Shown: positions 4,720-52,536 of the stretch, in pieces | How positions within the stretch are numbered: the first letter of the stretch is position 1 | Layout of the letters: every line of letters begins with the position of its first letter | From: an uncultured bacterium | GTDB taxonomy: Bacteria; Patescibacteriota; Minisyncoccia; UBA6257; 2-01-FULL-56-20 | NCBI GenBank assembly: GCA_963719425.1 | Contig: OY970382.1 | Location: 321,246 to 385,245, forward strand | DNA: 64,000 nucleotides | Direction: 5' to 3' | The notes under the pieces: model-generated | Databases searched by the model: none | Seen by the model: only the letters and a program-made list of their open reading frames with translations | Told to the model about the DNA's origin: nothing | Position numbers and translations under genes: made by a program

Positions 4720-5406
4720 ATGACCCGGTTCCATCTCCTCACGATTTTCCCTGAAATTTTCGATTCCTATCTCAAGGAATCTTTTTTGAAAAAAGCACAG
4801 GAAAAGAAACTGATTACGATTACGCCGCACAATCTGCGCGATTTCACGAGCGACAAGCATCGGAAGGTAGACGACCGGCCGTTTGGTGGCGGGCCGGGGA
4901 TGGTTCTTAAAGTGGAGCCCATTTACAAAGCGATTCGCGCCATTGTGCAAAAGTCGCGCGTTGCCCCGCGTAAGCGATGGGTCATTTTGTTCTCGCTCCG
5001 CGGAAAGAAGCTTGACGCGAAGGTATCGCGGCGGCTCGCAAAATACGACGAGCTTGTTTTGATCTGCGGCCGCTACGAAGGCGTGGATGAACGGGTGGCG
5101 CGATACGTCGCGGATGAAGAGATCTCAATAGGGGACTATGTGCTCTCCGGCGGCGAACTCCCCGCACTCGTCCTCATGGAATCCGTCTGTCGGTTCATCC
5201 CCGGCTTTTTGGGGAAACAGGAATCGCTTGAGGATTTTAAGGGCTCCTATCCCACATACACCCGCCCGGAGGTTTTTATAGCGAAGAAAAACGGTGCGGT
5301 GAAGAAGAATAGTACGAAAGGAAAAGCGCAAAAGTGGAGTGTGCCGAAAATGCTTCTCTCCGGCGACCACAAAAAGATCGCCGAGTGGCGCCGTGGGAAG
5401 CATTAA
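4720..5406 (+). CDS. trmD: tRNA (guanine37-N1)-methyltransferase
   Basis: TrmD motifs LTIFPE, PFGGGPGMVLK, RYEGVDERV, LLSGDHKKIAEWRR. Confidence 0.9.
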   Translation: MTRFHLLTIFPEIFDSYLKESFLKKAQEKKLITITPHNLRDFTSDKHRKVDDRPFGGGPGMVLKVEPIYKAIRAIVQKSRVAPRKRWVILFSLRGKKLDAKVSRRLAKYDELVLICGRYEGVDERVARYVADEEISIGDYVLSGGELPALVLMESVCRFIPGFLGKQESLEDFKGSYPTYTRPEVFIAKKNGAVKKNSTKGKAQKWSVPKMLLSGDHKKIAEWRRGKH

Positions 5407-5441
5407 GAAACGGCCGCTCCCGTTCTGTTAGAATAAAAGAC

Positions 5442-9013: not shown

Positions 9014-10792
9014 ATGGGACCGGAGACAAGAATTTGTCAGAACTGTAAGCAGCAATTCACGATCGAGCCGGAGGATTTCGTGTTCTATGAAAAGTTCAAT
9101 GTCCCGCCGCCGACGTGGTGTCCGGAGTGCCGATTCGTAAGACGCCTTACGTTACGGAACGAGCGGAGTTTGTATAAGCGAAAATGCGACCTCTGCGGAC
9201 AGGAAAAAATAATGCAATTTAGTCCCCAGTCGCCCTTCACCGTTTATTGCAAAGAATGTTGGTTGAGCGACCGGTGGGACGCTTCCGCGTATGCGAAAGA
9301 ATATGATTTTTCAAAGCCCTTTTTTGCGCAGTTTTTTGAACTGTTGCGCACTGTACCGCGACTCGGAATCGTCCATCAGGGAACAATTGTAGATAGTCAG
9401 TATGCAAACCGCGTGAGCAATTTAAAAAACTGTTATCTTGTCTACGGCAGTAATTTTGACGAAAACTGCATGTACGGCACATGGTTTAACAATTCAAAAG
9501 ATTCGATGGACGGACTCTCAGTGCAGAAATCGGAACAGTGTTATGAATGCATTGACTGCTTTGAATCACACAAGCTCTTTTACTCTCAAGAATGCACGGC
9601 ATGCAGCAGTTCGTACTTTCTCTTTAACTGCCGCAACTGCGAGAGTTGCTTTGGTTGCACGAATTTGAGAAACAAGAGTTATTGCGTATTTAACAAGCAA
9701 CATACCAAAGAAGAATATCAAAAGATCGTCGCCGGATTCAATCTCGGGAGCCGAACGATGCGTGATGCGCTGAAGCTCAAGTTCCTCTCAGAAAAAACAA
9801 AGTATGTTGTTCCTGCCCTCGTGGAACATCATAGCCAGAACGTATCGGGGAACTGGATAGAGGAATCAAAAAATGTTGCCGAAGGGTTTAGTTGCCGAAA
9901 GGTTGAGGACGGAAAATATCTCTACGGACTTGTAGGGTCCAAGGATGTCATGGATTACTCCTTTTGGGGGCGCGCCACAGAACTGGTCTATGATTCGGTG
10001 AATATCGGCTATCAGTCCTCAAGTATCCGTTTCGGCAATGAGGTATGGGATCAAATAACCGATGCGACGTACGTATTCAACTGCCACAACGCCCATGACC
10101 TTTTTGGATGCGTTGGGTTGAGAGGGAAAGAATACTGCATTTTGAACAAGCAATATTCAAAAACGGATTTTGCATCGCTGTCGTCAAAGATCATTGAACA
10201 GATGAAAACTGTCCCCTATAAGGACGCAACTGGAAAACTCTATTTTTATGGCGAATTTTTCCCTGTTGACTATCACCTTTTTGCTTACAACGAAACGATT
10301 GCGCACGAGTACTTTCCGCTTACCAAAGAGGAAGTGCTGCGACAGGGATATGCATGGAGGGATCCCGAGGATAGAAACTATAATATCACGCTCGCTCCCG
10401 ACGACTTACCTGATCACATAAAAGATGCCGAAAGTACCATCGCAGACCATATCATCGGCTGTGCTCACAAGGGCGCTTGTAATGAGCAGTGCACGACCGC
10501 GTTTCGCATTATCCCCACAGAATTACTCTTTTATAAAGCATATGAGATACCGCTCCCGACGCTCTGCCCAAACTGCAGGCACTATGGGCGATTGAAACAG
10601 CGAAACCCTCTGAAGCTTTGGCACAGGAAATGTCAGTGTGCGGGGACAAAATCGGAAAAGGGTATTTACGCCAATGCCGCTGTTCATCAGCATCAGACGA
10701 GCCACTGCCCCAACGAATTTGAGACCTCCTACGCGCCCGATCGCCCCGAGATCGTCTATTGCGAGCAGTGCTACAACGCGGAGGTGGTGTAA
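9014..10792 (+). CDS. Cysteine-rich Zn-ribbon repeat protein, paralog A2
   Basis: MGPETRICQNCKQQFTIEPEDFVFYEKFNVPPPTWCPECR N-terminus and ...CPNCRHYGRLKQRNPLKLWHRKC...YCEQCYNAEVV C-terminus nearly identical to A1; 9-nt spacer after B1. Confidence 0.8.
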   Translation: MGPETRICQNCKQQFTIEPEDFVFYEKFNVPPPTWCPECRFVRRLTLRNERSLYKRKCDLCGQEKIMQFSPQSPFTVYCKECWLSDRWDASAYAKEYDFSKPFFAQFFELLRTVPRLGIVHQGTIVDSQYANRVSNLKNCYLVYGSNFDENCMYGTWFNNSKDSMDGLSVQKSEQCYECIDCFESHKLFYSQECTACSSSYFLFNCRNCESCFGCTNLRNKSYCVFNKQHTKEEYQKIVAGFNLGSRTMRDALKLKFLSEKTKYVVPALVEHHSQNVSGNWIEESKNVAEGFSCRKVEDGKYLYGLVGSKDVMDYSFWGRATELVYDSVNIGYQSSSIRFGNEVWDQITDATYVFNCHNAHDLFGCVGLRGKEYCILNKQYSKTDFASLSSKIIEQMKTVPYKDATGKLYFYGEFFPVDYHLFAYNETIAHEYFPLTKEEVLRQGYAWRDPEDRNYNITLAPDDLPDHIKDAESTIADHIIGCAHKGACNEQCTTAFRIIPTELLFYKAYEIPLPTLCPNCRHYGRLKQRNPLKLWHRKCQCAGTKSEKGIYANAAVHQHQTSHCPNEFETSYAPDRPEIVYCEQCYNAEVV

Positions 10793-10838
10793 GCGCCGTT
10801 TAATCCTGATTTAACCCTCGCCGTTCTACAATGCGGGA

Positions 10839-13191: not shown

Positions 13192-14466
13192 TTGAAGATA
13201 CAAAATTTTGAACAACTCGCGGTCTCGGAGGCGCGGCAGGCATTGCTTACGATCACGAGGGCCGGACTTGAGGCGATTGACACGGCGCGGGTGATGCGCG
13301 AAACGATGCGGATTGAAGGAGAAATGCTGATTCTCGGAAGTGAAAAAATTCCGCTCGCGGAGATCGGGCAGCTCGTTTTTGTCGCAGTCGGCAAGTGCGC
13401 CGTAGAGGCCTCGCTTGCGGCGGAAGCAACGCTTGGTGACCACCTCACGCGCGGTGTTGTCGTAGACGTGAAGGCCCGCCCCGCCCCGGCCTCCACACGG
13501 CTCAAAACGTTTTGCGGCACCCATCCTTTGCCTTCAGAAGAAAACCTCCATGCGACAGAAGCGATCGTTCAGACGCTCGCGGGACTCACCGAGCGAGATC
13601 TCGTGATTTTTGTAATTTCCGGCGGCGGTTCCACACTGCTCTTTCTGCCGCAAGACAAAACTGACCGAAGCGAGATTGATATATTCAAAGTGCTCACGAA
13701 TGCCGGCGCGACTATTCAGGAAATGAACGTGGTGCGGAAACACCTGTCGCTCGCGCGCGGCGGCTACCTTGCGAAATATGCCTATCCTGCCCGCGTCATC
13801 TCGCTCATTATGAGTGACGTGCCGGGGAACGATATTGCAACCGTTTCTTCCGGTCCGACCGTAAAAGACATGACGACGATAGAAAACGCGGAAAGGGTGC
13901 TTGCAAAATTCAACGCGCCCAAAGCCAAGCTGGTTGAAACGCCGAAGGAAGACAAATATTTCGCGCGGGTCACAAACGTCCTCGTAGTATCCAACGTGCG
14001 CGCGCTTGACGCGATGCGCGCGGCCGCGGAGAAACTGGGCTTTCTCGCGGAGATTCGCGGGAGCGAACTCACAGGCGAGGCATCGGAAGTTGGGCAAATG
14101 GTCACGGAGGCGCTCCATGCGGTGCCCCCGCGGTCGGCGCTCCTTTGGGGCGGCGAAACGACTGTCACCGTCCGCGGCGCGGGCAGGGGAGGCCGCAATC
14201 TAGAACTCGCGGCTTCCGCGCTCCGCTTCGTGCGCGACGGCGAGGAAATTCTTTCTCTCGCTTCGGACGGCCGCGATCATGGCCCCTTCGCCGGCGCGAT
14301 CTGTGATACCATTACCAAAAAGGCGATCGCGGACGCCGGGCTTGATCTTGAACAATTCCTTAGCAATAACGATACCTACGGTCTTTTTGAAAAAGTTGGC
14401 AATTATCTCACGACCGGCGACACCGGCTCAAATGTGTCGGACCTCATCATAGCAATGAAGGCGTAG
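13192..14466 (+). CDS. Glycerate kinase, MOFRL family (hydroxypyruvate reductase-like)
   Basis: DUF4147/MOFRL architecture, ~420 aa, motifs VFVAVGKCA, ISGGGSTLLF, GRGGRNLE. Confidence 0.6.
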   Translation: MKIQNFEQLAVSEARQALLTITRAGLEAIDTARVMRETMRIEGEMLILGSEKIPLAEIGQLVFVAVGKCAVEASLAAEATLGDHLTRGVVVDVKARPAPASTRLKTFCGTHPLPSEENLHATEAIVQTLAGLTERDLVIFVISGGGSTLLFLPQDKTDRSEIDIFKVLTNAGATIQEMNVVRKHLSLARGGYLAKYAYPARVISLIMSDVPGNDIATVSSGPTVKDMTTIENAERVLAKFNAPKAKLVETPKEDKYFARVTNVLVVSNVRALDAMRAAAEKLGFLAEIRGSELTGEASEVGQMVTEALHAVPPRSALLWGGETTVTVRGAGRGGRNLELAASALRFVRDGEEILSLASDGRDHGPFAGAICDTITKKAIADAGLDLEQFLSNNDTYGLFEKVGNYLTTGDTGSNVSDLIIAMKA

Positions 14467-35262: not shown

Positions 35263-35353
35263 TTAAGTCAACGCTCGGGCGGCTGGAGGATGCGAGAACT
35301 TCCATCCTAGCCATGGGGTAGGGTATTCCAAGCTATTGAACCACGGCAATAAA

Positions 35354-35381
35354 TTGACAAAGTCTATAGGTATGATATAAT
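35354..35381 (+). promoter_or_regulatory. Consensus sigma-70 promoter TTGACA-N16-TATAAT upstream of the orphan receiver gene
   Basis: Hexamers read directly; ~80-nt leader then GGAAAAGAGGAGAGAAAG RBS. Confidence 0.5.
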
Positions 35382-35461
35382 GTGTCCAGCCCATCGGAAA
35401 TTGGCCCCAAGGCTTATCCGGTGACTTTGGTAAGGAAACAGGAAAAGAGGAGAGAAAGATC

Positions 35462-36031
35462 ATGAGGATTCTTGTGATCGACGACAACGCGACCAATCTA
35501 GCGGCCGCCGCGGCTCAACTGAAGGGCCACGAACTGACCGCAGCCCGGAGCTACGATGAGGGCCGCGAACTGATTCGGGGCAAGTACAATAAGGAGACAT
35601 ACCAATACGACCAGCCTGGGCAGTACGATGCAGTACTCGTAGACCTGTTAATGCCCGCGAGCAAGGAAGCGCAGGGGGCGGGGATGAAGTTTGCCGGTCA
35701 GGAGATGCCCGTTGGCATTTTCCTTGCGCTCCTCGCTGCGAAGAAAGGCGCGAAGTACGCTGCGGTCTTCACTGACAGCGACCATCATTCGCATCCTGCC
35801 TCAGCCTGCTTCGACGCCTTCAACGACAAGGGCGAATGCGATCCAACACCCTTCACAGTTGCAGGCGCGAATGTCATTCTCTGTAACAATCGCAACTGGG
35901 TCAATCATTACAAGCCCGACAACCTTTCGCGACCACTCGAGTTTGATGAGTGGTACCAGACGGGCATTGCGACCGTGATCGCGAAGAACTGGGAAGAGCT
36001 CCTCAAATACCTCATCGCTGTAGCGAAGTAG
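35462..36031 (+). CDS. Orphan response-regulator receiver (REC) domain protein with atypical extension
   Basis: MRILVIDDN acidic pocket, phosphoacceptor-like VLVDLLMP; no output domain and no kinase nearby. Confidence 0.55.
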   Translation: MRILVIDDNATNLAAAAAQLKGHELTAARSYDEGRELIRGKYNKETYQYDQPGQYDAVLVDLLMPASKEAQGAGMKFAGQEMPVGIFLALLAAKKGAKYAAVFTDSDHHSHPASACFDAFNDKGECDPTPFTVAGANVILCNNRNWVNHYKPDNLSRPLEFDEWYQTGIATVIAKNWEELLKYLIAVAK

Positions 36032-36230
36032 TGCAGCAAATCCTAAACCAAGGAAGGAGGTGATGAATACCAGGCCGCATGGTTCGCCCAGCGGCCCTTT
36101 CGTTTCCATGATGCCCCTCGGTCTGTCCGATACTTTTACTAGGTGCTCCCGGCGGCTGGACTCGGACCTTACATTCACCTCGCCAACGTCCGGCGCGGGC
36201 CGTGAGAATTTTGTTGTATAATGAAGGGGA

Positions 36231-37766
36231 ATGACTCTTCTCATTAAGAACGTGCGGATTTTGGGCGGAAGCCGGCCGTTTCCTGATTCATCCGATATAT
36301 TTGCAAGCAGTGACAAGATTTCGGCGATCGGCAACTTTCCGAATAAAAAAGCTGACGTAGTCCTGGACGGCCAGGATGCGTATTTGAGCCCCGGATTCAT
36401 TGACGTGAATACTGATTCGGACCATTATCTCACGCTGTTTGAGCATCCCGGGCAGGAGGATTTTTTGAAGCAAGGGGTGACGACCATTTTGGGCGGAATG
36501 TGCGGGTCATCGCTTGCGCCGCTTCTCTATGGCACCCTGGAATCCATGAGCAAGTGGGGCGATCCCAATCGCGTGAACGTCAATTGGCATGCAATGGGGG
36601 AGTTCCTCAAGGTTCTGGACCGGCGCCCCCTGGGCGTGAATTTTGGGACGCTTGTGGGACATGCTACGATCCGCCGCGCGATCCTCGGCGAAGCCCTACG
36701 CGATCTCACCAAAAACGAACTGGATGTTTTTTCACGGACCCTCACAGCAGCGTTAGAGGAGGGCGCCTTTGGGCTTTCCACCGGCCTTGCCTATGTGCAT
36801 GCAAGGAATACCTCGTATGCGGAACTTAAATTCCTGGCAAACGTCGCGAAGAAATTTCACAGCGTGTACGCGACCCACCTGCGGAGCCCGAGCAAGGGCG
36901 TCGCGGCTTCGGTAGAAGAAACCATCAACCTTGCGAAGGAAACCGGTGTGAAAACCCTCATCAACCATTTTGTTCCCATCGTCGGTTCAGAAAAAGAATA
37001 CGAAACCGCACTCGCGGCGATAGAGGCCTTGCCGCACGAAATGGACTTTCATTTTGATATTTATCCTTCCTCAAGCTCGCTCTTGCCCATTTATATCTTC
37101 CTTCCGCTCTGGGCGCAGAATGGCGGCGTGGACGTCATGCTCGCGAATGCGAAGGACGAATGGCTCGCGGCGCGCATACGGAAAGACATGCCGCACATTG
37201 ACGAAGAACATTTTGTGATTGCGCAGGCGCCCGGCAACGACTTTTTAGTGGGAAAATCGCTAAAGGAAGTGAAGCGCATGTATGGATTCACCGACGGACG
37301 GGATGCGCTCATCCGGCTCATGGTGACGATGAACATGCGGGGCGGCGTGCTGTATCGAAATCTCGTAACACGTCTTTCAAAGCGCGCCATCGCCTCCAAG
37401 CGCAGTTTTGTCGCTTCCAATGCTCCGAGTTTCACCGACAGCGCCGCGCGCGGCAAACAATTGAAATCGGAACGCACCACAAGCACGTTTACCAAGTTTT
37501 TAGCCATGGTAGAGCAGGAACACTTGATGCCGCTTGAAGAAGCAATAGCGAAGATTACCGCGGCGCCGGCAAAGAAGTTTGACCTTGCGTTCCGGGGGAC
37601 CATCGCAGAGGGAAATTTTGCGGATCTCACGTGCTTCAAGGGAGACGAGATCAAGTTCACCATAGTGAACGGAAAAGTGGCGATGCAAAACGGCGCATGT
37701 GCGCAGGTATTCGCGGGCAAAGCGCTCCGCCATAATCCTGTGCCGCCCGCGTCCAGTAAATTATGA
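36231..37766 (+). CDS. Amidohydrolase family protein (D-aminoacylase / N-acyl-D-amino-acid deacylase-like)
   Basis: SPGFIDVNTDSDH aligns to the PGFIDxHxH metal-binding region with both His replaced (N, D); rest of fold amidohydrolase-like. Confidence 0.55.
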   Translation: MTLLIKNVRILGGSRPFPDSSDIFASSDKISAIGNFPNKKADVVLDGQDAYLSPGFIDVNTDSDHYLTLFEHPGQEDFLKQGVTTILGGMCGSSLAPLLYGTLESMSKWGDPNRVNVNWHAMGEFLKVLDRRPLGVNFGTLVGHATIRRAILGEALRDLTKNELDVFSRTLTAALEEGAFGLSTGLAYVHARNTSYAELKFLANVAKKFHSVYATHLRSPSKGVAASVEETINLAKETGVKTLINHFVPIVGSEKEYETALAAIEALPHEMDFHFDIYPSSSSLLPIYIFLPLWAQNGGVDVMLANAKDEWLAARIRKDMPHIDEEHFVIAQAPGNDFLVGKSLKEVKRMYGFTDGRDALIRLMVTMNMRGGVLYRNLVTRLSKRAIASKRSFVASNAPSFTDSAARGKQLKSERTTSTFTKFLAMVEQEHLMPLEEAIAKITAAPAKKFDLAFRGTIAEGNFADLTCFKGDEIKFTIVNGKVAMQNGACAQVFAGKALRHNPVPPASSKL

Positions 37767-38872
37767 CGTTTGGGTCCGGCAGGCGCGGTCACAATCCGGA
37801 TTACTTTTTTCTCGCGATCGTTGTCATCCTTGTGGTGTTTGGGCTCGCCATGCTTGCCTCCGCTTCGTCCAATCTCGGGAAAACCCAATTTAACGACACC
37901 TATTACTATCTGAAACATCAGATCCTCTATGGTATTTCGGTCGGGATTGTCGGATTTCTCGTCGGGTATTACGTATATTACGAGCACTGGAAAAAAGTGG
38001 CGTTCATCTTACTGCTCATGAGCTTGGCGGCATTGGTTCTCGTCTTTACGCCGCTCGGCCTTCAGGCAAACAACACGAGCCGTTGGCTCCGGCTTGGTCC
38101 TTTGAGCTTCCAACCGGCGGAGCTCATGAAACTTACGTTCATCATTTACCTTGCGGCCTGGCTTTCCAATCCGAAGCTGAAGCGCGCCACCGACTTTCAG
38201 GCAGGCCTTCTGCCGTTTCTCATCATCTCCGGCATCATTGCGGGACTCCTCATCCTGCAACCGGCGACCAGTACGGTCGCCATCCTCCTTTTTTCGGGAC
38301 TCGCGGTGTACTTTATGAGCGGTGCGCCGCTGCGATACATCCTTCTTATCGCGCTCTGCGCCGTCGTCGCAATCGGGCTTGTGATTTATATCACTCCGTA
38401 TCGCCGCGCGAGGATTCTCGGCTTCCTTGATCAAAGCGCAAATACGCAGGGAACGAATTACCAATTGAATCAATCGCTCATCGCCATTGGCTCGGGGGGG
38501 CTCACGGGGGTGGGCTATGGGCAGTCGGCAACCAAAACAAGCTATCTTCCGACACCGATTGACGATTCCATTTTTGCCGTGGTGGCGGAGGAGCTCGGCT
38601 TCGTGGGCGCGGGCGCGCTTGTGGCGCTTTTCGCGCTCTTTGCCGCTCGTCTCTATTGGCTTGCAAAGAAGACGAGCAATCGCTTCGGCCGCTTACTGCT
38701 TATCGGCTTCGGAACGGCAATCGCGCTCCAGGCATTTGTGAATATGGCGGCGACCTCCGGACTCATTCCGCTCACGGGGGTTCCGTTACCATTCGTAAGC
38801 TACGGCGGCACCGCACTTGCGGTTTTTCTCACTATGAGCGGAATCGCGCTCAGTGTGTCAAAATATACATAA
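37763..38872 (+). CDS. ftsW: SEDS family cell-wall polymerase FtsW/RodA
   Basis: 10-TM profile, conserved PTPIDDSIFAVVAEELGF and GVPLPFVSYGG motifs; next to murG. Confidence 0.85.
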   Translation: MTFGSGRRGHNPDYFFLAIVVILVVFGLAMLASASSNLGKTQFNDTYYYLKHQILYGISVGIVGFLVGYYVYYEHWKKVAFILLLMSLAALVLVFTPLGLQANNTSRWLRLGPLSFQPAELMKLTFIIYLAAWLSNPKLKRATDFQAGLLPFLIISGIIAGLLILQPATSTVAILLFSGLAVYFMSGAPLRYILLIALCAVVAIGLVIYITPYRRARILGFLDQSANTQGTNYQLNQSLIAIGSGGLTGVGYGQSATKTSYLPTPIDDSIFAVVAEELGFVGAGALVALFALFAARLYWLAKKTSNRFGRLLLIGFGTAIALQAFVNMAATSGLIPLTGVPLPFVSYGGTALAVFLTMSGIALSVSKYT

Positions 38873-38876
38873 TGCG

Positions 38877-40010
38877 ATGAATGCTGAAACTTTCCGCGTA
38901 GTGGTGGCGGGCGGGGGAAGCGGGGGACACGTATACCCCACGATCGCGGTGATTGAAGCGCTCAAAAAACGATGCGCCGAGCTCGGAGCGCCGCTTGAGA
39001 TAATCCGCGTGGGTCCGCGGGATGGATACGAACCGCTCTTCGCCGACTGCGGCGTCGCGCTTTCGCCGATTGTAGCCGGCAAGGTCCGACGATATCTATC
39101 ATTAGCGAACTTCGTTGACATTCCTAAATTCTTTATTGGATTTCTGCACGCGCTTTTCAAGCTGTATCTCCTCATGCCCGACGTTATTTTTTCAAAAGGT
39201 GGCACCGGTGCCTTGCCTGTCGTCGTCGCCGGCTGGTTTTATCGCATCCCCATCGCCATCCACGAATCCGACGCGAAGCCGGGTCTTACTAATCTTTTCT
39301 CCGCACGTTTCGCGCGGAGGGTATTTGTGAGCTTCACAAGTGCCACCGAGTATTTCAATCCGCAGAAAACACAAGTGGTCGGGACGCCAATCCGGGAGGA
39401 ACTTCTTGCGGGACGGGTGGCCAAAGAGGTAGCGAAAGAAACGCTCGGCTTTGATCCAAAAAGTCCGCTCACGCTTATTCTTGGTGGCTCACAGGGCTCA
39501 CAACGGATCAATCAATTCATTCTTGAGGGCCTTGTCGCGCTCGTAAAGGAAACCCAGGTGCTCCATCAAACCGGCGTGGCGAATTTGCCGGAGGTTGAGC
39601 AGCTCTCCCGCGCCGCACTCATCGACGAATCGTTCAAAAACCGCTACAAGGCCATGGGATATTTTGGGAAAGACCTTTCACTTGCACTTGCCGCCGCCGA
39701 CCTTGTGGTCGCACGCGCCGGCAGCAACACCATCGCCGAGGTCGCCTCGTTCGGGGTTCCCATGATCCTTATCCCGCTTTCCGATGCGGCCAATGACCAC
39801 CAGAAACTGAACGCTTACGAATTCGCAAAAAACGGCGGCGCGGTCGTAATTGAGGAAGCCAATCTCTTTGAGGGTATCTTTCTCGGGCAACTGAGGGCGA
39901 TTCTGGGCAACGAGGAGTTACGCGCCAAGATGAGTGCCGCCGCAAGCCAGTTTTTTCTCCCCGACGCAGCGGGAAAAATCGCGGAGGAACTGCTGCAATT
40001 GGCGATATAG
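38877..40010 (+). CDS. murG: Undecaprenyl-PP-MurNAc-pentapeptide-UDPGlcNAc GlcNAc transferase
   Basis: G-loop VVAGGGSGGHVYPTIAV, C-terminal GT28 domain; start taken at MNAETFRVV. Confidence 0.85.
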   Translation: MNAETFRVVVAGGGSGGHVYPTIAVIEALKKRCAELGAPLEIIRVGPRDGYEPLFADCGVALSPIVAGKVRRYLSLANFVDIPKFFIGFLHALFKLYLLMPDVIFSKGGTGALPVVVAGWFYRIPIAIHESDAKPGLTNLFSARFARRVFVSFTSATEYFNPQKTQVVGTPIREELLAGRVAKEVAKETLGFDPKSPLTLILGGSQGSQRINQFILEGLVALVKETQVLHQTGVANLPEVEQLSRAALIDESFKNRYKAMGYFGKDLSLALAAADLVVARAGSNTIAEVASFGVPMILIPLSDAANDHQKLNAYEFAKNGGAVVIEEANLFEGIFLGQLRAILGNEELRAKMSAAASQFFLPDAAGKIAEELLQLAI

Positions 40011-40040
40011 ACCGATGCCCGACGACCAGGCGAGAAAACA

Positions 40041-41828
40041 ATGAATGCTGAAACCAAAACCTGCGTAAATTGCAAGAACCAGTTCGTGATAGAACCGGAG
40101 GATTTTGATTTCTACAAGAAAATGGCTGTCCCGCCGCCGACGTTTTGTCCAGATTGTAGGCTGCAACGGCGGTTAGCATACAGGAATGAGCGGGGACTCT
40201 CAAAGAGGAAGTGTAATGCTCCGGGGCACAGCGAGGATATTATTTCGGCATATTCCGATCCGAAACTCGTGGTCTATGACGAAAGATACTGGTGGAGCGA
40301 TGCATGGGACGCCGGTCAGTACGGAAGGGCATACGATTTTACGAAGCCATTCTTTCTACAATTCCGGGAATTAATGGAACAAACCCCACACATCGCACTG
40401 GTAGACAGCAAATCGACCAATACAAGCTACTGCAATTATACCGTAGAGCACAAAAACTGTTATCTCGTGAGTGCAGGATGGAATAATGAAGACTGCTATT
40501 ACGGCAACAGAATTTCATTCTGCAAAGATACGCTGGATTCATATGTGTGCCACCGGACAGAATTCAGCTATGAGAATGTGTATTGCAAGGAATCGTATCA
40601 ACTATTTTGGAGCCGAAACTCGGAAAACTGCAACAACTCCTATTTTCTCTATGATTGCCGCGGCTGTTCCCACTGCGCGTGTTGCGTAGGATTGCGCAAC
40701 AAGCAATATTATATTTTTAACCAACCCTACACGAAAGAGGAATATGTCAAGAAAATCGCGGAGATCAATTTGGGGAACCGCGCGTCACTTTCACGATTAC
40801 AAGAGAAACTTGAATCAATGCGCCTCGCAACCATACATCGGTACGCGCAGGTATACAAATCACAAAACGTAATTGGAGATAATATTGAAGAAGCAAAGAA
40901 TTGCTACTGGTGCTTTGATGTGGCGGGCAACGCGGAAAATTCCAAGTACTGCAATTGGGCAACCTACGGGATGAAAGACTGTTACGATTCAGGGCCTGGA
41001 GCAGGCGGCCAGTCAGAGCTCACGTACGAAGGGGTAAGCATCGGGGTCAACAACGCCCGTTGCGCCTTCGGCGCGGCAATATGGTACTCGCATGATATCC
41101 TCTATAGTTACAACTGCCATTCGTCCCAATATCTCTTCGGCTGCGTTTCGCTTCGGAACAAAAAGTATTGTATTTTAAACAAACAATATTCCAAAGAAGA
41201 ATATGAAGCACTCCTGCCGCGCATACGGAAGCATATGGAAAATATGCCATATGTAGATAAAAATGGAAGGCAATATCGATACGGAGAACTCTTTCCTATT
41301 GAACTTTCGCCCTTCGCGTACAATGAAACTGTAGCGCAAGAATTTTTCCCTCTTACCGAAAAAGAGAGTGCAGAAGAAAATTATCCATGGCGTACAGAAG
41401 GGGCTCGTTCGTACGCACCCACCATGCGTGCGGCTGATCTTCCCGACTCCATACAATCCGTGAGCGACGATATCTCAAAGGAAATTATTGAATGCGAACA
41501 CGCCAACGCGTGCAACGACGGATGCGCCTCGGCGTTCAAAATTATTCCACAGGAGCTTATGTTCTACCGAAAATTCAACCTCCCGCTGCCACGGTTATGC
41601 TTCAATTGCCGCCATGCGAATCGGCTGCGACAAAGGAATCCCACGAAGCTCTGGCATCGCATGTGTGCGTGCGCGGGCAAAGCGTCAGAAAATGGCCGGT
41701 ATGCTAACAGTGCACCGCATGGCCACCATGGTGTGAACCATTGTCAGAACGAATTCGAAACTACCTACACTCCCGACCGCCCTGAAATCGTCTATTGCGA
41801 GCAGTGCTACCAAGCAGAAATCGTTTAG
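40041..41828 (+). CDS. Cysteine-rich Zn-ribbon repeat protein, paralog B2
   Basis: MNAETKTCVNCKNQFVIEPEDFDFYKKMAVPPPTFCPDCR...CNAPGHSEDIIS (B subtype) and C-terminal CQNEFETTYTPDRPEIVYCEQCYQAEIV; full-length homolog of 5442/7214/9014. Confidence 0.8.
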   Translation: MNAETKTCVNCKNQFVIEPEDFDFYKKMAVPPPTFCPDCRLQRRLAYRNERGLSKRKCNAPGHSEDIISAYSDPKLVVYDERYWWSDAWDAGQYGRAYDFTKPFFLQFRELMEQTPHIALVDSKSTNTSYCNYTVEHKNCYLVSAGWNNEDCYYGNRISFCKDTLDSYVCHRTEFSYENVYCKESYQLFWSRNSENCNNSYFLYDCRGCSHCACCVGLRNKQYYIFNQPYTKEEYVKKIAEINLGNRASLSRLQEKLESMRLATIHRYAQVYKSQNVIGDNIEEAKNCYWCFDVAGNAENSKYCNWATYGMKDCYDSGPGAGGQSELTYEGVSIGVNNARCAFGAAIWYSHDILYSYNCHSSQYLFGCVSLRNKKYCILNKQYSKEEYEALLPRIRKHMENMPYVDKNGRQYRYGELFPIELSPFAYNETVAQEFFPLTEKESAEENYPWRTEGARSYAPTMRAADLPDSIQSVSDDISKEIIECEHANACNDGCASAFKIIPQELMFYRKFNLPLPRLCFNCRHANRLRQRNPTKLWHRMCACAGKASENGRYANSAPHGHHGVNHCQNEFETTYTPDRPEIVYCEQCYQAEIV

Positions 41829-42001
41829 GACGACCACGATGCCTTTGAGGAACCTAGCGGAGGCGAGGAATTAGCACTCTCCGAGCGAGCAGAAAATTTG
41901 ACGGGTCCCCCGTGCTTGTCGCGGAGGGTGTCAAATTTTCGTAAGCAAGCGAGGAGAGCGCCCGAGCCGGAGCGGGTTCCGAAAAAGCATCGTGGTCGTC
42001 C
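41828..42001. repeat. 174-bp imperfect palindrome (15-bp perfect terminal IR GGACGACCACGATGC plus inner 11-bp IR GAAAATTTGAC)
   Basis: Arms 41828-41842 and 41987-42001 are exact reverse complements; inner IR 41892-41902 / 41930-41940; arms ~70% complementary over ~85 nt. Confidence 0.7.
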
Positions 42002-42057
42002 TACAGAATTTGAGGTAAGATAGGGGAGACATGGTGGGAACAAAGGAGGAAAAGGAC

Positions 42058-43527
42058 ATGGCGGTCCGCGTGAGGATGGCGCCAAGCCCTACAGGGCCTT
42101 TGCACATTGGGACGGCGCGGACGGCGCTTTTCAATTGGCTCTTCGCCCGCAAGCACGGGGGAGTGTTCGTGATGCGCGTGGAGGACACGGACAAGGAACG
42201 CTCGGAGAAAAAATATGAAGACGAAATTCTGGAAGGCCTTGCGTGGCTTGGTTTGGATTGGGACGAGGGCCCGCTTGCGGACGGCGGTCGCCTGCCGGTA
42301 GCGGACGAAAAGGGGCCGTATGGCCCGTATCGGCAGAGCGCGCGCACGGAAATCTATAAAAAGTATCTGCAGGAGCTTCTGGACAAGGGCGAAGCGTACT
42401 ACTGCTATTGCACCAAAGAAGAACTTGAAGCGCAGCGCGAGGCGATGCTCGCGCAAGGGCTCCCGCCGAAATACAACGGGCGGTGCAGGAATTTAAAGAC
42501 GCCGCCCACAGGAAAAAGCCCGGAGGTGATCCGTTTCAGAATTCCCGAAACGAACGTGACGTTTGATGATCTTATCCGCGGAAAAGTTGCATTTGATACT
42601 TCGCTCTTTGGCGACATCGTGATCGCGAAAGACCTTGAAAATCCACTTTACAACTTCGCGGTCGTGGTGGACGACGAGCTTATGAAAATCAGCCACGTGA
42701 TTCGTGGCGAGGATCATCTTTCAAACACGCCGAAGCAAATTCTCATGCAACGCGCGCTCGGATTCGGCGAACCGCGCTATGCCCACATTCCACTCATCCT
42801 GAACCCCGACCGCAGCAAAATGTCAAAGCGTTTCGCCGACGCGGCGCTTTTGCAATACCGCGAGAAGGGTTACCTGCCGGAAGCACTTTTCAACTTTCTC
42901 ACCCTTCTCGGCTGGCATCCCAAAGACAACCGCGAAGTGCTTTCCAAAAAAGAATTGGTGAAGGAATTTGATCTCGCACGAGTGCAGCAAGCCGGCGCCG
43001 TGTTCAATCAAGAAAAACTGGACTGGCTGAACCGTGAACACCTGAAGAAGATGAGTAGCAAAAAGACCGCGGACGAGATACGCGCATTGCAACTGTTTGC
43101 ATCCGAGAACCTGCCCGAACCCGGGGAAGATGTTCTTATGAAAATTATTGACGTGGAGCGCAGCCGTGCGAACACGCTCCGCGACTTCGTAACCCTTGGA
43201 CGGTTCCTTCTTATCCTGCCGGAGTACGAAAAGGAACTCTTGATCTGGAAAGAAAGTTCTGTAAAAGAGGCCGCTGCCGCGCTCGCGGTGATGGAGGAAG
43301 AGCTCGAAAAGATCAATGCGCAGGAATTCAACCGTGAAACGTTATCGGCGGCCGTCACGCACACCATCACGGCAATAGATGGAAAGAGGGGATCGGTCAT
43401 GTGGCCTCTCCGCGTAGCGGTTTCCGGGCAGAGGGCCTCGCCCGATCCCCTGGAAATCATGGAGGTGTTGGGAAAGAAAGAATCGCTTCGCCGGATCGCC
43501 CTCGCACGCCAGAAACTAGCTTCTTAA
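42058..43527 (+). CDS. gltX: Glutamate--tRNA ligase
   Basis: VRVRMAPSPTGPLHIGTARTALFNW (HIGH) and KMSKR motifs; start chosen at MAVRVR. Confidence 0.9.
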   Translation: MAVRVRMAPSPTGPLHIGTARTALFNWLFARKHGGVFVMRVEDTDKERSEKKYEDEILEGLAWLGLDWDEGPLADGGRLPVADEKGPYGPYRQSARTEIYKKYLQELLDKGEAYYCYCTKEELEAQREAMLAQGLPPKYNGRCRNLKTPPTGKSPEVIRFRIPETNVTFDDLIRGKVAFDTSLFGDIVIAKDLENPLYNFAVVVDDELMKISHVIRGEDHLSNTPKQILMQRALGFGEPRYAHIPLILNPDRSKMSKRFADAALLQYREKGYLPEALFNFLTLLGWHPKDNREVLSKKELVKEFDLARVQQAGAVFNQEKLDWLNREHLKKMSSKKTADEIRALQLFASENLPEPGEDVLMKIIDVERSRANTLRDFVTLGRFLLILPEYEKELLIWKESSVKEAAAALAVMEEELEKINAQEFNRETLSAAVTHTITAIDGKRGSVMWPLRVAVSGQRASPDPLEIMEVLGKKESLRRIALARQKLAS

Positions 43528-43528
43528 C

Positions 43529-44830
43529 ATGAAGACGCTTTTTTATTTTTGCGCCCGCGGCGTCGCAGTGGTCCTCACGGCATGCGCAATCATAATAATC
43601 ATGGTGCATGCCGTGAATGCCGCCGCAGCCGCCACAACCACGCCAGCGACGGCGACCACCCTGCAAGAGCAAATCGAACAAAAGCAGCAGCAATTGAACG
43701 ACGTGAATACTCAGTTAACGTCCACCACCGCGAGCCTGAAGCAGATACAATCGCAACGCGTGACGCTCCAGCAACAACTCAACCTGATCAATGGCAATAT
43801 CAATTCTCTCAATTTGGGCATCCAAGCCGACACGCTGACCTCACAACAACTCACGTTGGAAATTGAGCAGCTCCAAAGCGACACGAAGGACATTCAGGCG
43901 TCCGTGGCGACGAAACAAAGTGCCATCGCGAGCATCTTGCAGGAAGTGGAGCGGAACGATTCCGAAAATGGGAATCTTCTCGCGCTATTTCTGAAGAGCG
44001 GAACGCTTGCGGACGGCGTCCTGGAAGCGAATTCTCTTTTGAATCTCCGCGCGGAACTTGCGACCAACATTGACGCGCTGAAAGAGCTCAATACGGAATA
44101 CACGGTGAAGATTGAGGACGGCACGACGAAATCGGGGCAGGTCACGGCACATCAACAAGATCTTCAAAATAAAAAAGCGATCGTCCAAGACCAACAGACC
44201 CAAAAGCAAACCCTCTTAAAATCAACCAAGAATCAAGAGAGTGTTTTCCAACAACAAGTGACGGCGCTCCAGAAAGAACAAGCGGAGATCGCGGCCGACA
44301 TGGAGGCGATTGCTGCGGTATTGCGGACGAAGATTGATCCCTCCACATTGCCCGCGCTCGCACCCGGCGTGCTCCTCGTGCCGATCCAGGGCGATGATCA
44401 ATCCGATATCACACAAGGATATGGCGCGACCGCATTCGCAAAAAACGGCTATGCGGGGCACTGGCATAACGGCATTGATCTTGCGGCGTCTATCGGAACG
44501 CCGGTTCTTGCGGCGGAAGACGGCACCGTGGCCGCGACCGGCAACCAAGACGTATACTGTCCCAAGGGAGCATACGGAAAATTTGTGGTTATCAACCATA
44601 CCGACAACCTCACGACACTCTATGGCCATCTATCGCGAATCCTTGTCGCAAAAGGCGATACGGTAAAGAGGGGACAGGTGATCGGCTACTCCGGTCAGAC
44701 CGGTTATGCGACCGGCCCGCACCTGCACTTTACGGTCTATGCCCAACCGACGTTCTACATGGGGCAATCGAAGGTTTGCGGACCGATGCCCTACGGCGGC
44801 GATCTAAACCCGATTGGATATTTGTTCTAA
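43529..44830 (+). CDS. M23 family metallopeptidase with N-terminal coiled coil (EnvC-like)
   Basis: Signal/TM N-terminus, Q/L-rich coiled coil, C-terminal HWHNGIDLAA...GHLS...GYATGPHLHF M23 motifs. Confidence 0.8.
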   Translation: MKTLFYFCARGVAVVLTACAIIIIMVHAVNAAAAATTTPATATTLQEQIEQKQQQLNDVNTQLTSTTASLKQIQSQRVTLQQQLNLINGNINSLNLGIQADTLTSQQLTLEIEQLQSDTKDIQASVATKQSAIASILQEVERNDSENGNLLALFLKSGTLADGVLEANSLLNLRAELATNIDALKELNTEYTVKIEDGTTKSGQVTAHQQDLQNKKAIVQDQQTQKQTLLKSTKNQESVFQQQVTALQKEQAEIAADMEAIAAVLRTKIDPSTLPALAPGVLLVPIQGDDQSDITQGYGATAFAKNGYAGHWHNGIDLAASIGTPVLAAEDGTVAATGNQDVYCPKGAYGKFVVINHTDNLTTLYGHLSRILVAKGDTVKRGQVIGYSGQTGYATGPHLHFTVYAQPTFYMGQSKVCGPMPYGGDLNPIGYLF

Positions 44831-44848
44831 ATATGGTATAATCAGAAC

Positions 44849-45289
44849 ATGCTGTGGCGGCGGAGAACGCGTGCCCTTGCGATAATGGTGGCTATCGCCG
44901 TCCTCGTCATCGCCGCGACTTTCTTACAAACCGCACAAACCGTGGGGGCATACGCACTGCCGGGAACCTCGGAGGGTCAAGGAAATTCTGCAACAACAAT
45001 CAGCTTATCGTCCTTAAACTTCGGCAGTTTATTCGCCCCGTTTCAAAGCTTCCTGAACAGCATCGGTTCAGTGGGAAGTGAGGCGACACCACAACTCAAC
45101 CTGTCCGCCCCACAAACGCAATTCCTCACGACGGGCGCGCAAAACGTCTTTCAGCAATTTGACAATTGGCTTTACGGCATCATCGGGTTTCATGTTTCCG
45201 GATTCTTTGCGGCTATCTTAGGTGTTATCCTTTGGGTGCTTGGGATAGCAGAGAGTATCGTCAAGTGGCTCTTGGGGGTGGTTAAGTAG
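44849..45289 (+). CDS. Hypothetical membrane/secreted protein
   Basis: N-terminal and C-terminal hydrophobic segments; no recognisable domain. Confidence 0.4.
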   Translation: MLWRRRTRALAIMVAIAVLVIAATFLQTAQTVGAYALPGTSEGQGNSATTISLSSLNFGSLFAPFQSFLNSIGSVGSEATPQLNLSAPQTQFLTTGAQNVFQQFDNWLYGIIGFHVSGFFAAILGVILWVLGIAESIVKWLLGVVK

Positions 45290-45407
45290 GAGATGTTTCA
45301 ATCAGCTGGTTTAACTGTCGCAAAACAGTCATTTGGTAACGGATAGCATTTGGGCGAAGGTATCCTTCCCTGCCGGGCCGGCGTTACTATAAGATAAAGA
45401 AGCCATA

Positions 45408-46022
45408 ATGGGGAAAGTTATTGTTGGCGCGCTCGCAATATTCTGTACGCTCACGGTCATCGTCACGATAGGAAATTTTCTTACCTCGGGCGGTTTGGTG
45501 CGCGCGTATCAATCGGGCGGCAGTGCAAACCAACTTACCTCCATTGATTTCAGCTTGTTTGACAAAACTGGCATCGGCAGAAGTTATATTACGCAAGGAT
45601 ATGGTCACACGTCGTTTTCATACGAATATCCAAATGGCTGGCACGATGGCATTGATATTGCGGCTGTCTACGGGGCGCCAATCTACTCCCCTGGCGGAGG
45701 AACGGTACTTGCGACCGGCGATCAGGACGATTACTGTCCACGGCGTGGCTTTGGCAAATACATGGCAGTCCGCGACGATGCGAACCACCTCATTCTTTGG
45801 TTTGCCCACCTTGGCACGATCTCTGTCTCGCCCGGTAGCGTGGTCAAAAAAGGTACTTTGATCGGCTCCGTGGGCGCAACCGGCTTTGAAACGGGCACTC
45901 ACCTTCACTTCTCCATTTTTGACGAGAATGGATTTTCTATGACCCCACGCAACGGCTGCGGTCCGGATCCGACCGGCCGCGACCTTGATCCTCTGTCATA
46001 TCTGGGGACCGTCTATAAATAA
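45408..46022 (+). CDS. M23 family metallopeptidase (paralog of 43529 catalytic domain)
   Basis: GWHDGIDIAA, GDQDDYCP, GTHLHFSIF motifs; shares GDQD.YCP..G.GK with the upstream M23 protein. Confidence 0.8.
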   Translation: MGKVIVGALAIFCTLTVIVTIGNFLTSGGLVRAYQSGGSANQLTSIDFSLFDKTGIGRSYITQGYGHTSFSYEYPNGWHDGIDIAAVYGAPIYSPGGGTVLATGDQDDYCPRRGFGKYMAVRDDANHLILWFAHLGTISVSPGSVVKKGTLIGSVGATGFETGTHLHFSIFDENGFSMTPRNGCGPDPTGRDLDPLSYLGTVYK

Positions 46023-46027
46023 TCGGA

Positions 46028-47410
46028 ATGGAAGCAATCAGAATGACGCATCTGTCGCAAAATAAAGTTCATTTTATAGGTATCGGCGGTATCGGCATGA
46101 GCGCCTTGGCCCGCTATTTCCTTTCTGAAAAATGGGCTGTTTCGGGGTCGGATGTGACAAAAAGCCAGATCACCGATTCCCTTACAAAAGATGGCATAAA
46201 GCTCAAAATTGGGCATAAAAAGGGCCATTTGCCTCGCGGTGTGAACCTTGTGGTTGTGAATTTGGCCATACCAGCGAACAATCCGGAGTTGCGCGAGACG
46301 CGGCGGCGGGGCGTCCGGGTACTCACCTATCCGGAAGCCGTGGGGGAACTTACGGAACAGTACAAGACGATCGCCATTGCCGGTGCGCATGGCAAGAGCA
46401 CGACGACGGCGCTCGCAGCACTCACGCTCGTGCGCGGCGGGTTGGATCCGACAGTCATCGTTGGGACAAACCTCAGAGAGTTCGGCGGCGGCAAAAACGG
46501 CCGCAACTTCCGACGTGGGCGCGGCGAATATCTTGTCCTTGAGGCCGATGAATTCGGGAACGCGTTCTTGCGCTACTCCCCTTTCATAGCCATCGTCACG
46601 AACATTGACCGCGAGCACTTGGATACACATAAGGATCTCGCGGGTGTCAAAAAAGCGTTCCTCGGCTTTACAAAAAACGTCGCAAGCGGCGGAACGCTTA
46701 TCCTAAATCACGACGACAAAAATATTGTTTCTCTGAAATCGCCCATTGCGCGGATTGCGCAGCAAAAGAATGTACGCATGATTTGGTTTTCGCTCCATGA
46801 TCCAGACGCGAAGAAAATAAAACGTGCGATAAAAATTTCTGGCGTGCACAATATTTCAAATGCGCTTGCGGTTTATAAACTTGGGAAAGTACTCGGCATT
46901 CAGGAAAAGAAAGTGCTCGCCGCGATCGGTGCGTACCGCGGCGCATGGCGGCGAATGGAATACCGCGGGAGGTTCGGCGGCAAAGACGCCCGGCGCGGCG
47001 CGCTCGTCTACGACGACTACGCGCATCACCCAACGGAGATCAAAGCAACGCTCAAAGCGTTCCATGAAAAATATCCGCATAAAAAAATCCTCTGTGTCTT
47101 TCAGCCACATCAGGCAAAAAGACTCGCGGCGCTCTTCAAGGAATTCACAACTGCCTTTGCCGCCGCCGACAAAACACTCCTCCTCCCTATTTATAAAGTG
47201 GCGGGCCGCGACGAGAAGCCAAGCCGGTTTGATTCCGCAGCGCTTGCCCGCACAATCCAAAAGCGCGAACCCCGAAAGCCATTTTTCTACCTCGCGAATC
47301 CGCGCAACCTCAAAAAGGCCATCCGTACGCTTACCACTCCCCTCTCGCAGTACATCATCGTCATGATGGGCGCCGGGGATATCGTAAAACTTACTGACCT
47401 GCTCATATAG
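46028..47410 (+). CDS. murC: UDP-N-acetylmuramate--L-alanine ligase
   Basis: FIGIGGIGMSALA N-terminus, GAHGKSTTTAL P-loop, Mur ligase C-terminal domain. Confidence 0.9.
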   Translation: MEAIRMTHLSQNKVHFIGIGGIGMSALARYFLSEKWAVSGSDVTKSQITDSLTKDGIKLKIGHKKGHLPRGVNLVVVNLAIPANNPELRETRRRGVRVLTYPEAVGELTEQYKTIAIAGAHGKSTTTALAALTLVRGGLDPTVIVGTNLREFGGGKNGRNFRRGRGEYLVLEADEFGNAFLRYSPFIAIVTNIDREHLDTHKDLAGVKKAFLGFTKNVASGGTLILNHDDKNIVSLKSPIARIAQQKNVRMIWFSLHDPDAKKIKRAIKISGVHNISNALAVYKLGKVLGIQEKKVLAAIGAYRGAWRRMEYRGRFGGKDARRGALVYDDYAHHPTEIKATLKAFHEKYPHKKILCVFQPHQAKRLAALFKEFTTAFAAADKTLLLPIYKVAGRDEKPSRFDSAALARTIQKREPRKPFFYLANPRNLKKAIRTLTTPLSQYIIVMMGAGDIVKLTDLLI

Positions 47411-52305: not shown

Positions 52306-52536
52306 CGCGGGTTTTCCTTTATTTTGAGGATGTGCCGGAGGATGTAGGATGGACACACATTTCAATGACGATAGGCGCATGATTGAACTCCCGATTCGCA
52401 AGATACCCAAGCCCGAAACTCAAAGAGGACGCGAGAAAAATGATCGCGCCAAACATGGCTTCCTTTTTATGAAGCCCAAGCCAGCATTTCAATTTTTGCA
52501 CAGGGCAATGATACCACGCCGCCCATTAAAACATTT

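Follow-up and report, generated by a model that had tools for sequence, protein, structure and literature searches.

A conserved structured element beside the exchangeable cargo of a murG-gltX slot in one Minisyncoccia clade

Introduction

Patescibacteria have tiny genomes, and almost nothing is known of their non-coding elements or of how they gain and lose accessory genes. Here, I describe a locus in a stretch of 64,000 nucleotides (hereafter, the window) of contig OY970382.1 from an uncultured Minisyncoccia bacterium. In this locus, a gene for a Cys-rich protein and a palindrome of 174 nt, termed element A in this study (41828-42001, + strand), lie between murG and gltX in a cell-division and cell-wall gene cluster. 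Comparison with related loci revealed a hot spot inside this cluster, where Cys-rich paralogs, an OLD-type ATPase, and an AbiE pair have been swapped among close relatives, and two previously uncatalogued structured elements of 150-175 nt at the cargo borders, both with clear compensatory evolution. Element A is best explained as the 3′ boundary of an accessory-gene cassette in a hypervariable murG-gltX slot of one Minisyncoccia clade.

The murG-gltX slot and its contents

In the window, ftsW (37763-38872, + strand; Pfam FTSW_RODA_SPOVE, E = 4.5e-91) and murG (38853-40010, +; Pfam Glyco_transf_28 and Glyco_tran_28_C) are followed, after a spacer of 30 nt (40011-40040, +), by an open reading frame (ORF) of 595 aa for the Cys-rich protein (40041-41828, +). 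Element A starts at the G of the stop codon TAG (41826-41828) of this ORF. Downstream of A lie a promoter-like motif (42011-42021, +; TGAGGTAAGAT), whose −10 hexamer TAAGAT occupies 42016-42021, and gltX (42031-43527, +; Pfam tRNA-synt_1c and Anticodon_2), the ATG of which (42031) is 9 nt on. A second in-frame ATG of gltX is present at 42058 after AAGGAGG, and the database protein of 489 aa corresponds to a start at 42058. The next region (43529-47410, +) carries, as assigned by Pfam, an M23 peptidase gene (43529-44830), a 146-aa ORF, a second M23 peptidase gene (45408-46022), and murC (46028-47410). I refer to the interval between murG, its left border, and gltX, its right border, as the slot, and to the genes inside it as cargo.

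Is this gene order typical of the clade? For a synteny comparison, gltX loci were taken from relatives of decreasing similarity (L041 and the other numbered loci below). The deposited record of GltX from the closest syntenic relative names a Minisyncoccia bacterium. The order amidohydrolase-ftsW-murG-(slot)-gltX-M23-small ORF-M23-murC is common to L041, L042, L043, and L067, the loci that are long enough on both sides, and it is seen in L065 up to the first M23 gene, where that locus ends. ftsW belongs to the backbone that is collinear with L041, L042, L043, and L059, and the genes from the first M23 peptidase to murC have the same order in L041, L042, L043, and L067. In L065 and L067, the slot is empty: gltX begins 35-41 nt after the stop codon of murG, and only a promoter-like motif (aaatttgaggtaaaataggggata-ATG) lies between them. 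Past gltX, L067 continues with an M23 gene, another M23 gene, and murC.

These results bear on an earlier note made from the window alone, which held that murG is normally followed by murC and that a mobile or duplicative insertion had landed between them. The former statement is not valid for this clade, since the empty sites have gltX after murG. The gltX and M23 genes between murG and murC are not an insertion, because their order is conserved in the relatives and is ancestral to the clade. The insertion survives for the Cys-rich gene and the palindrome, which are missing from the empty sites and replaced by other cargo elsewhere. Thus, the murG-murC comparison shows a slot whose content varies and is sometimes absent, set in an ancestral gltX-M23-x-M23 order.

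The cargo is diverse. The slot holds the Cys-rich gene and the palindrome in the window; an orphan ORF of 301 aa, a different Cys-rich gene, and a copy of A in L059; another Cys-rich gene and an unrelated structured element (termed element Y) in L041; an AbiEi/AbiEii toxin-antitoxin pair and two pilin-like genes in L042; and an OLD/GajA-type ATPase, XseA, and XseB in L043. Since the slot content differs between relatives, the murG-gltX junction can be regarded as a hot spot for accessory and defence genes.

Fold of element A

Element A is the longest close-range inverted repeat in the window. Its terminal sequence, GGACGACCACGATGC, occurs only twice in the window, at 41828-41842 (+) and 41987-42001 (−), and the two copies form a perfect 15-bp closing stem (41828-41842/41987-42001, +). 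The pairing reaches 41826-42003 (UAGG...CCUA), taking in the stop codon. An inner 11-bp repeat (GAAAATTTGAC/GTCAAATTTTC) is found at 41892-41902 and 41930-41940. In all these points, from the start at the stop codon to the perfect termini and the inner repeat, the palindrome is as the earlier note had described it. RNA folding of 41828-42001, a check which that note had proposed, gave a strong hairpin: the + strand has a free energy of −102.8 kcal/mol as RNA, compared with −61.5 ± 4.6 kcal/mol in dinucleotide shuffles (z = −9.1), and none of the 200 shuffles folds as stably. The − strand as RNA has −96.6 kcal/mol. The stability of the fold far exceeds chance.

On the gene-sense strand, element A is an interrupted hairpin with ~64 pairs over 174 nt. 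Its central region, composed of 41855-41873 (UAGCGGAGGCGAGGAAUUA) and 41962-41974 (CCGAGCCGGAGCG) on the + strand, is weakly paired and near-invariant in the three copies of A described below, and the helices adjoining it covary. This region may be a bubble or a protein-binding site; in the minimum free energy (MFE) structure, it is not left open and no clean bubble is seen. The distal part (41892-41940, +) consists of the inner repeat around an apical hairpin with the loop CUUGU (41915-41919). Helices 4 and 5 do not vary among the three copies. Below the inner repeat (41883-41891 and 41941-41953), there are two 2x2 internal loops split by 2-bp GC steps, which are GA/GA and then GA/AA in the window or GA/GA in L059 and L060. 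The loops are compatible with tandem sheared G.A pairs, and the rod may stack continuously.

A k-mer comparison showed that the spacer between murG and the Cys-rich ORF shares GACGACCA (8 nt; 40021-40028 in the spacer), CGATGCC (7 nt), and AGGCGAG (7 nt) with the palindrome. GACGACCA is the 5′ terminus of A and has three occurrences on the + strand of the window. The spacer in L041 has AGCGCA in common with the terminus of its Y element. These shared k-mers are a weak hint and may represent a short direct repeat, an element relic at the left border, or chance.

Homologues and covariation of element A

Copies of the palindrome in relatives, which the earlier note had considered, do exist. A metagenome scan with the inner repeat gave 21 matches, two of which are true homologues of A. 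One lies at the same place in L059 (6576-6750, +) and is 93.1% identical. The other is found in L060 (~3131-3305, −) with 84-86% core identity. The organism of L060 is distant: its ribosomal protein L25 and that of the window's genome have 68% identity. There, A sits between orphan ORFs and rplY, the L25 gene, and its closing stem ends ~30 nt upstream of the extended −10 motif of rplY (TGCTATACT). A tblastn search detected no Cys-rich gene or remnant beside this copy. The closing stem in L060 has a different sequence (GCCAGTGTCCTT/AAGGACACTGGC) and is still a perfect 12-bp stem. Weaker complementarity around this copy covers 55 nt per arm (3102-3156/3279-3333; 73%) and enters the promoter region of rplY, as though a once longer palindrome were being eroded at its outer ends.

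Covariation was assessed in a core alignment of the three sequences (window, L059, and L060) with 52 core pairs, for which the statistics are thin. Standard pairs make up 97.4% of the cells, compared with 27-54% in slid controls. Five pairs are changed on both sides, compared with 2.0 ± 1.0 in shuffles and at most one with slid partners. Helix 3, for example, is GCACUCUCC/GGAGAGCGC in the window and GCACGGUAC/GUAUCGUGC in L060. There are six core stem differences between the window and L059, each of which retains or restores the pairing of the sense strand; four of them make G.U pairs, which are C.A mismatches on the opposite strand. In line with this, the sense strand has the more stable fold in each of the three copies (sense/antisense MFE, −98.9/−92.9, −102.1/−76.0, and −90.6/−79.4 kcal/mol).

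The 93.1% identity of A between the window and L059 can be compared with 94.5, 94.9, and 74.2% at the first, second, and third codon positions of gltX between the same loci. Since A is far above the third positions, it is conserved like replacement sites and not like neutral sites. All lines of evidence agree that A probably functions as a single strand, folded in the gene orientation; RNA is the simplest reading of this strand, and single-stranded DNA (ssDNA) is the alternative.

The window, 64 kb of an 888-kb genome, contains a single copy of A, and a covariance model of A detected no additional one in related loci totalling ~245 kb. At the rplY locus of the L041 genome, where the intergenic gap is 53 nt, the model detected no A; the possibility that A is a relocated single-copy gene upstream of rplY in that genome was ruled out by the lack of a model match. 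A scan of viral contigs and BLAST searches against phage records gave no A either. Rfam 15 has no match to A at the gathering score in a search of the whole window and none at E ≤ 10 in a search of 41750-42080, 6S RNA (RF00013) included. No promoter is evident upstream of any of the three copies. A loose scan with the terminal-repeat pattern over a collection of species representatives, to which the window's genome does not belong, gave 35 matches, nearly all of them chance matches in the coding sequence of high-GC genomes. One match, at 2435-2589 of L011 from a Saprospiraceae metagenome-assembled genome, is an unrelated 155-nt palindrome of nested hairpins (CGACCACGATGTGGTCG ... GACCGCGATGCGGTC). 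Judging from the alignment and these searches, A is a member of a small, conserved family of candidate structured elements that is absent from Rfam, and it appears to be more than an ordinary terminator.

Element Y, other closures of the slot, and the putative downstream promoters

Element Y is a different structured element of ~150 nt just upstream of the gltX promoter in L041 and L043. Its copies are at 9783-9932 (+) of L041 and at 9788-9944 (+) and 6036-6192 (−) of L043. Y has a closing stem of 25-30 bp and a three-way junction with two conserved hairpins. As many as 22 of the 59 pairs are changed on both sides, and 98.3% of the cells are paired. Like that of A, the closing stem of Y is wholly different between genomes and the interior is conserved. 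In L043, two inverted copies bracket a cargo of 3.6 kb: the (−) copy lies right after murG and the (+) copy right before the gltX promoter. The two strands of Y have folds of about the same stability. A and Y have no sequence similarity on either strand. A comparison of Y with Rfam gave sub-threshold chance matches only: ALIL scored 16 bits and drum 18.8, where the gathering scores are 50 and 43, respectively. There was no further copy of Y in ~245 kb of related loci, and none was found in a viral-contig scan with the Y core or in BLAST searches against phage records. In its predicted structure and position, Y is a non-homologous counterpart of A with the same placement.

In L066, a canonical short terminator (GGCCGCCTA-gtga-TAGGCGGCC-TTTT) is located just upstream of the gltX promoter motif. 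Thus, slots with cargo are closed on the gltX side by A (window and L059), by Y (L041 and L043), by a terminator (L066), or by nothing (L042), and the empty slots (L065 and L067) have no closing element. Whatever precedes it, the sequence TG(A/G)G(G/C)TA(A/G)(A/G)ATnGGGGA is kept upstream of gltX in L041, L042, L043, L059, L065, L066, and L067. It is likely that this motif is a promoter. Lacking a −35, it was not called in a scan for the sigma-70 consensus. The −10-type motifs of gltX and rplY (TAAGAT, TAAAAT, TAGAAT, TATACT, and TAGTAT; window 42011-42033, L060 3085-3105 (−), and L068 5985-6003) mostly have an upstream TG, lack a −35, and are followed by an ATG 8-9 nt on, which suggests that the gltX and rplY mRNAs may be leaderless or near-leaderless.

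The Cys-rich family and the exchange of cargo

The Cys-rich protein in the slot is indeed, as the earlier note had recognized, a fourth paralog: each of the three tandem paralogs in the window (5334-7217, 7184-9004, and 9014-10792) is 48-50% identical to it. The protein has ~8000 homologues, and those with a named source are all from Patescibacteria (Liptonbacteria, Staskawiczbacteria, Kaiserbacteria, Paceibacterota, and Minisyncoccia). No significant match was found in Pfam, NCBIfam, PADLOC, PHROGs, or PDB sequences, and the sole trace in Pfam is a sub-threshold treble-clef match. An AlphaFold2 model (predicted local distance difference test, 81.9; predicted template modeling score, 0.79) gave no Foldseek match at E ≤ 0.001 in PDB or BFVD, with local zinc-ribbon similarity only. 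No relatives of the family were found in the viral-contig scan. The four paralogs have GC contents of 44-48% (0.47-0.55 at third codon positions), compared with 53-55% (0.61-0.66) in the housekeeping neighbours; the slot gene itself (40041-41828) has 47%, compared with 53-55% in the adjacent genes. The nearest orthologues of the slot paralog share 64-69% identity with it; they occur in unrelated contexts that leave no space for a palindrome of this kind.

The flanks of the slot in the window, L041, and L059 are 84-91% identical at the nucleotide level, but their Cys-rich proteins are only 44-47% identical, which is as divergent as paralogs inside one genome. In blastn comparisons, the window (36144-40156) is 87% identical to L041 (4071-8079) from ftsW to a point ~116 nt into the Cys-rich gene, murG and the spacer included. 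The flank homology passes through the conserved 5′ end of the gene (40041-40156, +), which encodes an N-terminal zinc ribbon, and then ends; it restarts at 42007, 6 nt past the palindrome. The window and L059 are 83% identical over 40068-40168, and their homology restarts at the conserved 3′ end of the gene (41748-41828, +): 41748-44079 is 87.7% identical to L059 6496-8827, from ~80 nt before the end of the gene across the palindrome and gltX. The homology between L059 and L041 restarts at L059 6755. As far as these alignments indicate, it is only the body of the Cys-rich gene that is exchanged, within conserved flanks. A very recent insertion does not agree with this pattern: the window has the left junction and the initial ~116 nt of the gene in common with L041, and the last ~80 nt and the palindrome in common with L059.

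The last ~80 nt of the slot gene are 82-88% identical at the nucleotide level to the 3′ ends of the other paralogs. Because both gene ends keep their nucleotide sequence among paralogs, they could act as recombination handles. The conservation of the ends is ~67-88% across paralogs and genomes, with the maximum in the final ~80 nt, and the bodies have 44-50% protein identity; the corresponding end segments of the paralogs in the window are 5429-5624, 7131-7208, 8918-9004, and 10706-10793. The position of the swap breakpoints at paralog ends suggests a gene-conversion-like shuffling of the Cys-rich family.

Possible roles of element A

What could element A do at this position? The reading that I prefer, with a probability of roughly 0.45, is that A is a sense-strand RNA hairpin which ends or processes the transcript of the cassette and insulates the adjacent gltX promoter. 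Transcripts from ftsW-murG and the cargo gene would fold into A at their 3′ end. The hairpin would then stop the transcript or be cut, perhaps by double-strand-specific cleavage in the 15-bp closing stem, and would protect the upstream message from 3′ exonucleases. It would also insulate the −35-less and possibly leaderless promoter of gltX, whose −10 hexamer begins 15 nt downstream. The cargo and the element would be exchanged by homologous recombination via murG, the ends of the Cys-rich family, and gltX. The copy in L060 supports this reading, since it too has orphan ORFs on one side and the −10 motif of a housekeeping gene on the other. The transcript-terminating hairpin before gltX proposed in the earlier note comes close to it and is the most likely role, although a hairpin so long and conserved and without a U-tract is not an ordinary terminator. 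A shares with Rho-independent terminators a stable hairpin placed after an ORF and before the next promoter, but it is ~5 times longer, has no U-tract, and has conserved internal loops.

Several points weigh against the insulating hairpin. No U-tract follows it (UACAGAAUUUGAGG is found instead), and no + strand terminator was called within 41828-42010. A length of 174 nt and near-invariant internal loops are superfluous for a mere terminator or stabiliser. The core identity of ~86% with L060, where L25 is only 68% identical, implies either a partner that recognizes the sequence or horizontal spread. The ORF upstream of A in L060 (3371-3757, opposite strand) may be divergent, in which case A is not in a 3′ untranslated region (UTR), and no promoter for A is evident there. 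L042 has cargo without any element, and three known copies of A make the covariation statistics thin. Because the length, the conserved loops, and the high identity to a distant copy are not explained by insulation alone, two rivals stay alive.

First, A may be a trans-acting small RNA of ~150 nt, which is cut from the 3′ UTR or from read-through at the variable closing stem, as a processing stem, and acts through the conserved loops; a 6S-like decoy of RNA polymerase or a protein scaffold is one possibility. This would suit an interior conserved like first and second codon positions with a closing stem that is free to vary as long as it pairs. A sense-strand-specific fold and the same core in another context of a distant genome (L060) would also be expected. 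The likeness to 6S RNA lies in a rod-like hairpin of ~175 nt, within the length range of 6S RNA, whose hairpin has ~180 nt, with a conserved and poorly paired centre (19 nt/13 nt) between a proximal stem of ~25 bp and a longer distal stem, and with variable stem sequences. However, A has no Rfam match, 6S RNA included, even at E ≤ 10, no recognisable promoter precedes any copy, and the predicted centre is not a clean open bubble. Moreover, the element is replaced in a sister genome: L041 has another element at gltX and no A at rplY, and A would have to be dispensable or located elsewhere there. I consider a small RNA unlikely.

Second, A and Y may be recombination or mobility elements at the DNA level that fold as ssDNA, analogous to the attC sites of integrons or to cargo-bracketing repeats resembling miniature inverted-repeat transposable elements (MITEs). 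A lies exactly at the homology breakpoints (42007 in the window and 6755 in L059), and it starts at the stop codon of the cargo; attC sites typically begin at the stop codon of the cassette ORF. Inverted Y copies flank the 3.6-kb cargo of L043, GACGACCA provides an 8-nt direct repeat at the opposite border of the cassette, and a core identity of ~86% against 68% for L25 fits horizontal spread. A strand-biased tolerance of G.T pairs is also expected of a folded single strand of DNA. On the other hand, the genes of the slots examined include no integrase, transposase, or recombinase domain, and the terminal repeats are the least conserved part, which is the opposite of a terminal inverted repeat bound by a transposase. 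There is no consistent target-site duplication (TA at both ends in the window only, TA/TC in L059, and none in L060 or for Y), and copies are few in the sequence scanned, with a single A in the 64 kb of the window and no additional A or Y in ~245 kb of related loci. In my view, a DNA-level role is about as unlikely as a small RNA.

The comparison with attC is instructive. Like attC, A is an imperfect palindrome right after a cassette ORF with its structure conserved above its sequence, and it would be a folded, strand-biased single strand. It lies at the border of exchangeable and often promoterless cargo, with various cargo for one element type. Unlike attC, neither has RYYYAAC/GTTRRRY cores, no intI is nearby, and there are no arrays; the inverted Y pair of L043 contradicts the geometry of an attC array. 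A and Y are 150-175 nt in length, compared with 57-141 nt for attC, and the better-folding strand of A is the sense strand of the ORF. The core sites of attC were looked for and rejected in both elements. A ends with TAGGACGACC...GGTCGTCCTA and has only a GTT (GTTTAGG) on the 5′ side, which is not GTTRRRY; in Y of L041, GCGTTGT is on the 5′ arm and ACAACGC on the 3′ arm, the reverse arrangement. It is quite unlikely, though conceivable, that A and Y constitute a new class of ssDNA-folded cassette-boundary sites for accessory and defence genes beside housekeeping promoters, integron-like without a recognisable integrase or attC core.

The MITE-like end suggested in the earlier note finds no support, given the least conserved terminal repeats, the lack of a consistent target duplication, and the single copy in 64 kb. 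The closing stems of the window and L059 are unrelated in sequence to that of L060, and the interiors are 84-86% identical; the same holds for Y of L041 and L043. Among known repeats, ERIC/IRU, Correia/NEMIS, and REP/BIME sequences are similar in being intergenic imperfect palindromes of 100-170 nt, often after stop codons and in either orientation, as in the Y pair. Such repeats are transcribed with the adjacent genes and can serve in processing, stabilisation, or termination. They differ in being multi-copy with conserved ends, whereas here the ends vary, the interior is conserved, and there are one or two copies per locus. The slot itself resembles the minimal mobile elements of Neisseria, which have a fixed site between housekeeping genes, alternative cargo, some empty sites, and no need of a dedicated recombinase. 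The organisms are unrelated, however, and homologous recombination is only the proposed route of exchange here. To my knowledge, no structured boundary element has been described for the Neisseria minimal mobile elements.

An ordinary intrinsic terminator or a chance or neutral palindrome, for example from a fold-back duplication, would account for the position between a stop codon and the next promoter and for the near-equal stability of the minus strand, but it is highly improbable and largely refuted by homologues with compensatory changes, a conservation well above neutral, and the missing U-tract in a clade that uses short canonical terminators (L066).

Other identities were considered and dropped. 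A T-box or riboswitch leader of gltX does not fit a promoter motif that lies downstream of A, and a small peptide does not fit an 11-codon ORF that is not kept in frame in L060. A TnpB-like guide RNA was rejected: the element is present at one of the four paralogs, L060 has no such gene, and there are no RuvC or OrfB domains. A retron non-coding RNA was dropped for lack of a reverse transcriptase, a target hairpin of a diversity-generating retroelement because the protein C-terminus is the most conserved part, and a hammerhead or other ribozyme because the core motifs are absent from A. A full-text literature search gave nothing relevant on 6S or other structured RNA or on integrons and attC in Patescibacteria (candidate phyla radiation), or on the Cys-rich paralogs.

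If A and Y are RNA insulators or processing sites, they would show how streamlined genomes tolerate insertions in essential operons. As recombination sites, they would be signs of a new cassette system. In both cases, the alignments and covariance models of A and Y can serve as seeds for family-wide searches.

Other differences between the loci

L041 has a free-standing LAGLIDADG endonuclease ORF of 174 aa (13287-13811) in the interval between the small ORF and the second M23 gene, where the window has a short spacer (~45304-45343). A second break of synteny with L041 was found between the enolase and amidohydrolase genes (window 35299-36144 against L041 3508-4071). At this break, the window has a 189-aa ORF on the + strand (35462-36031), and L041 has an acetyltransferase gene on the minus strand. 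This interval may be a second variable slot. Finally, a segment of ~90 nt in the window (52362-52452) is inverted relative to L041 (20906-20996) and L042 (18717-18801), with collinear surroundings. The inverted segment carries an ORF of 44-53 aa in L041 and L042, which indicates a small gene flipped between relatives.

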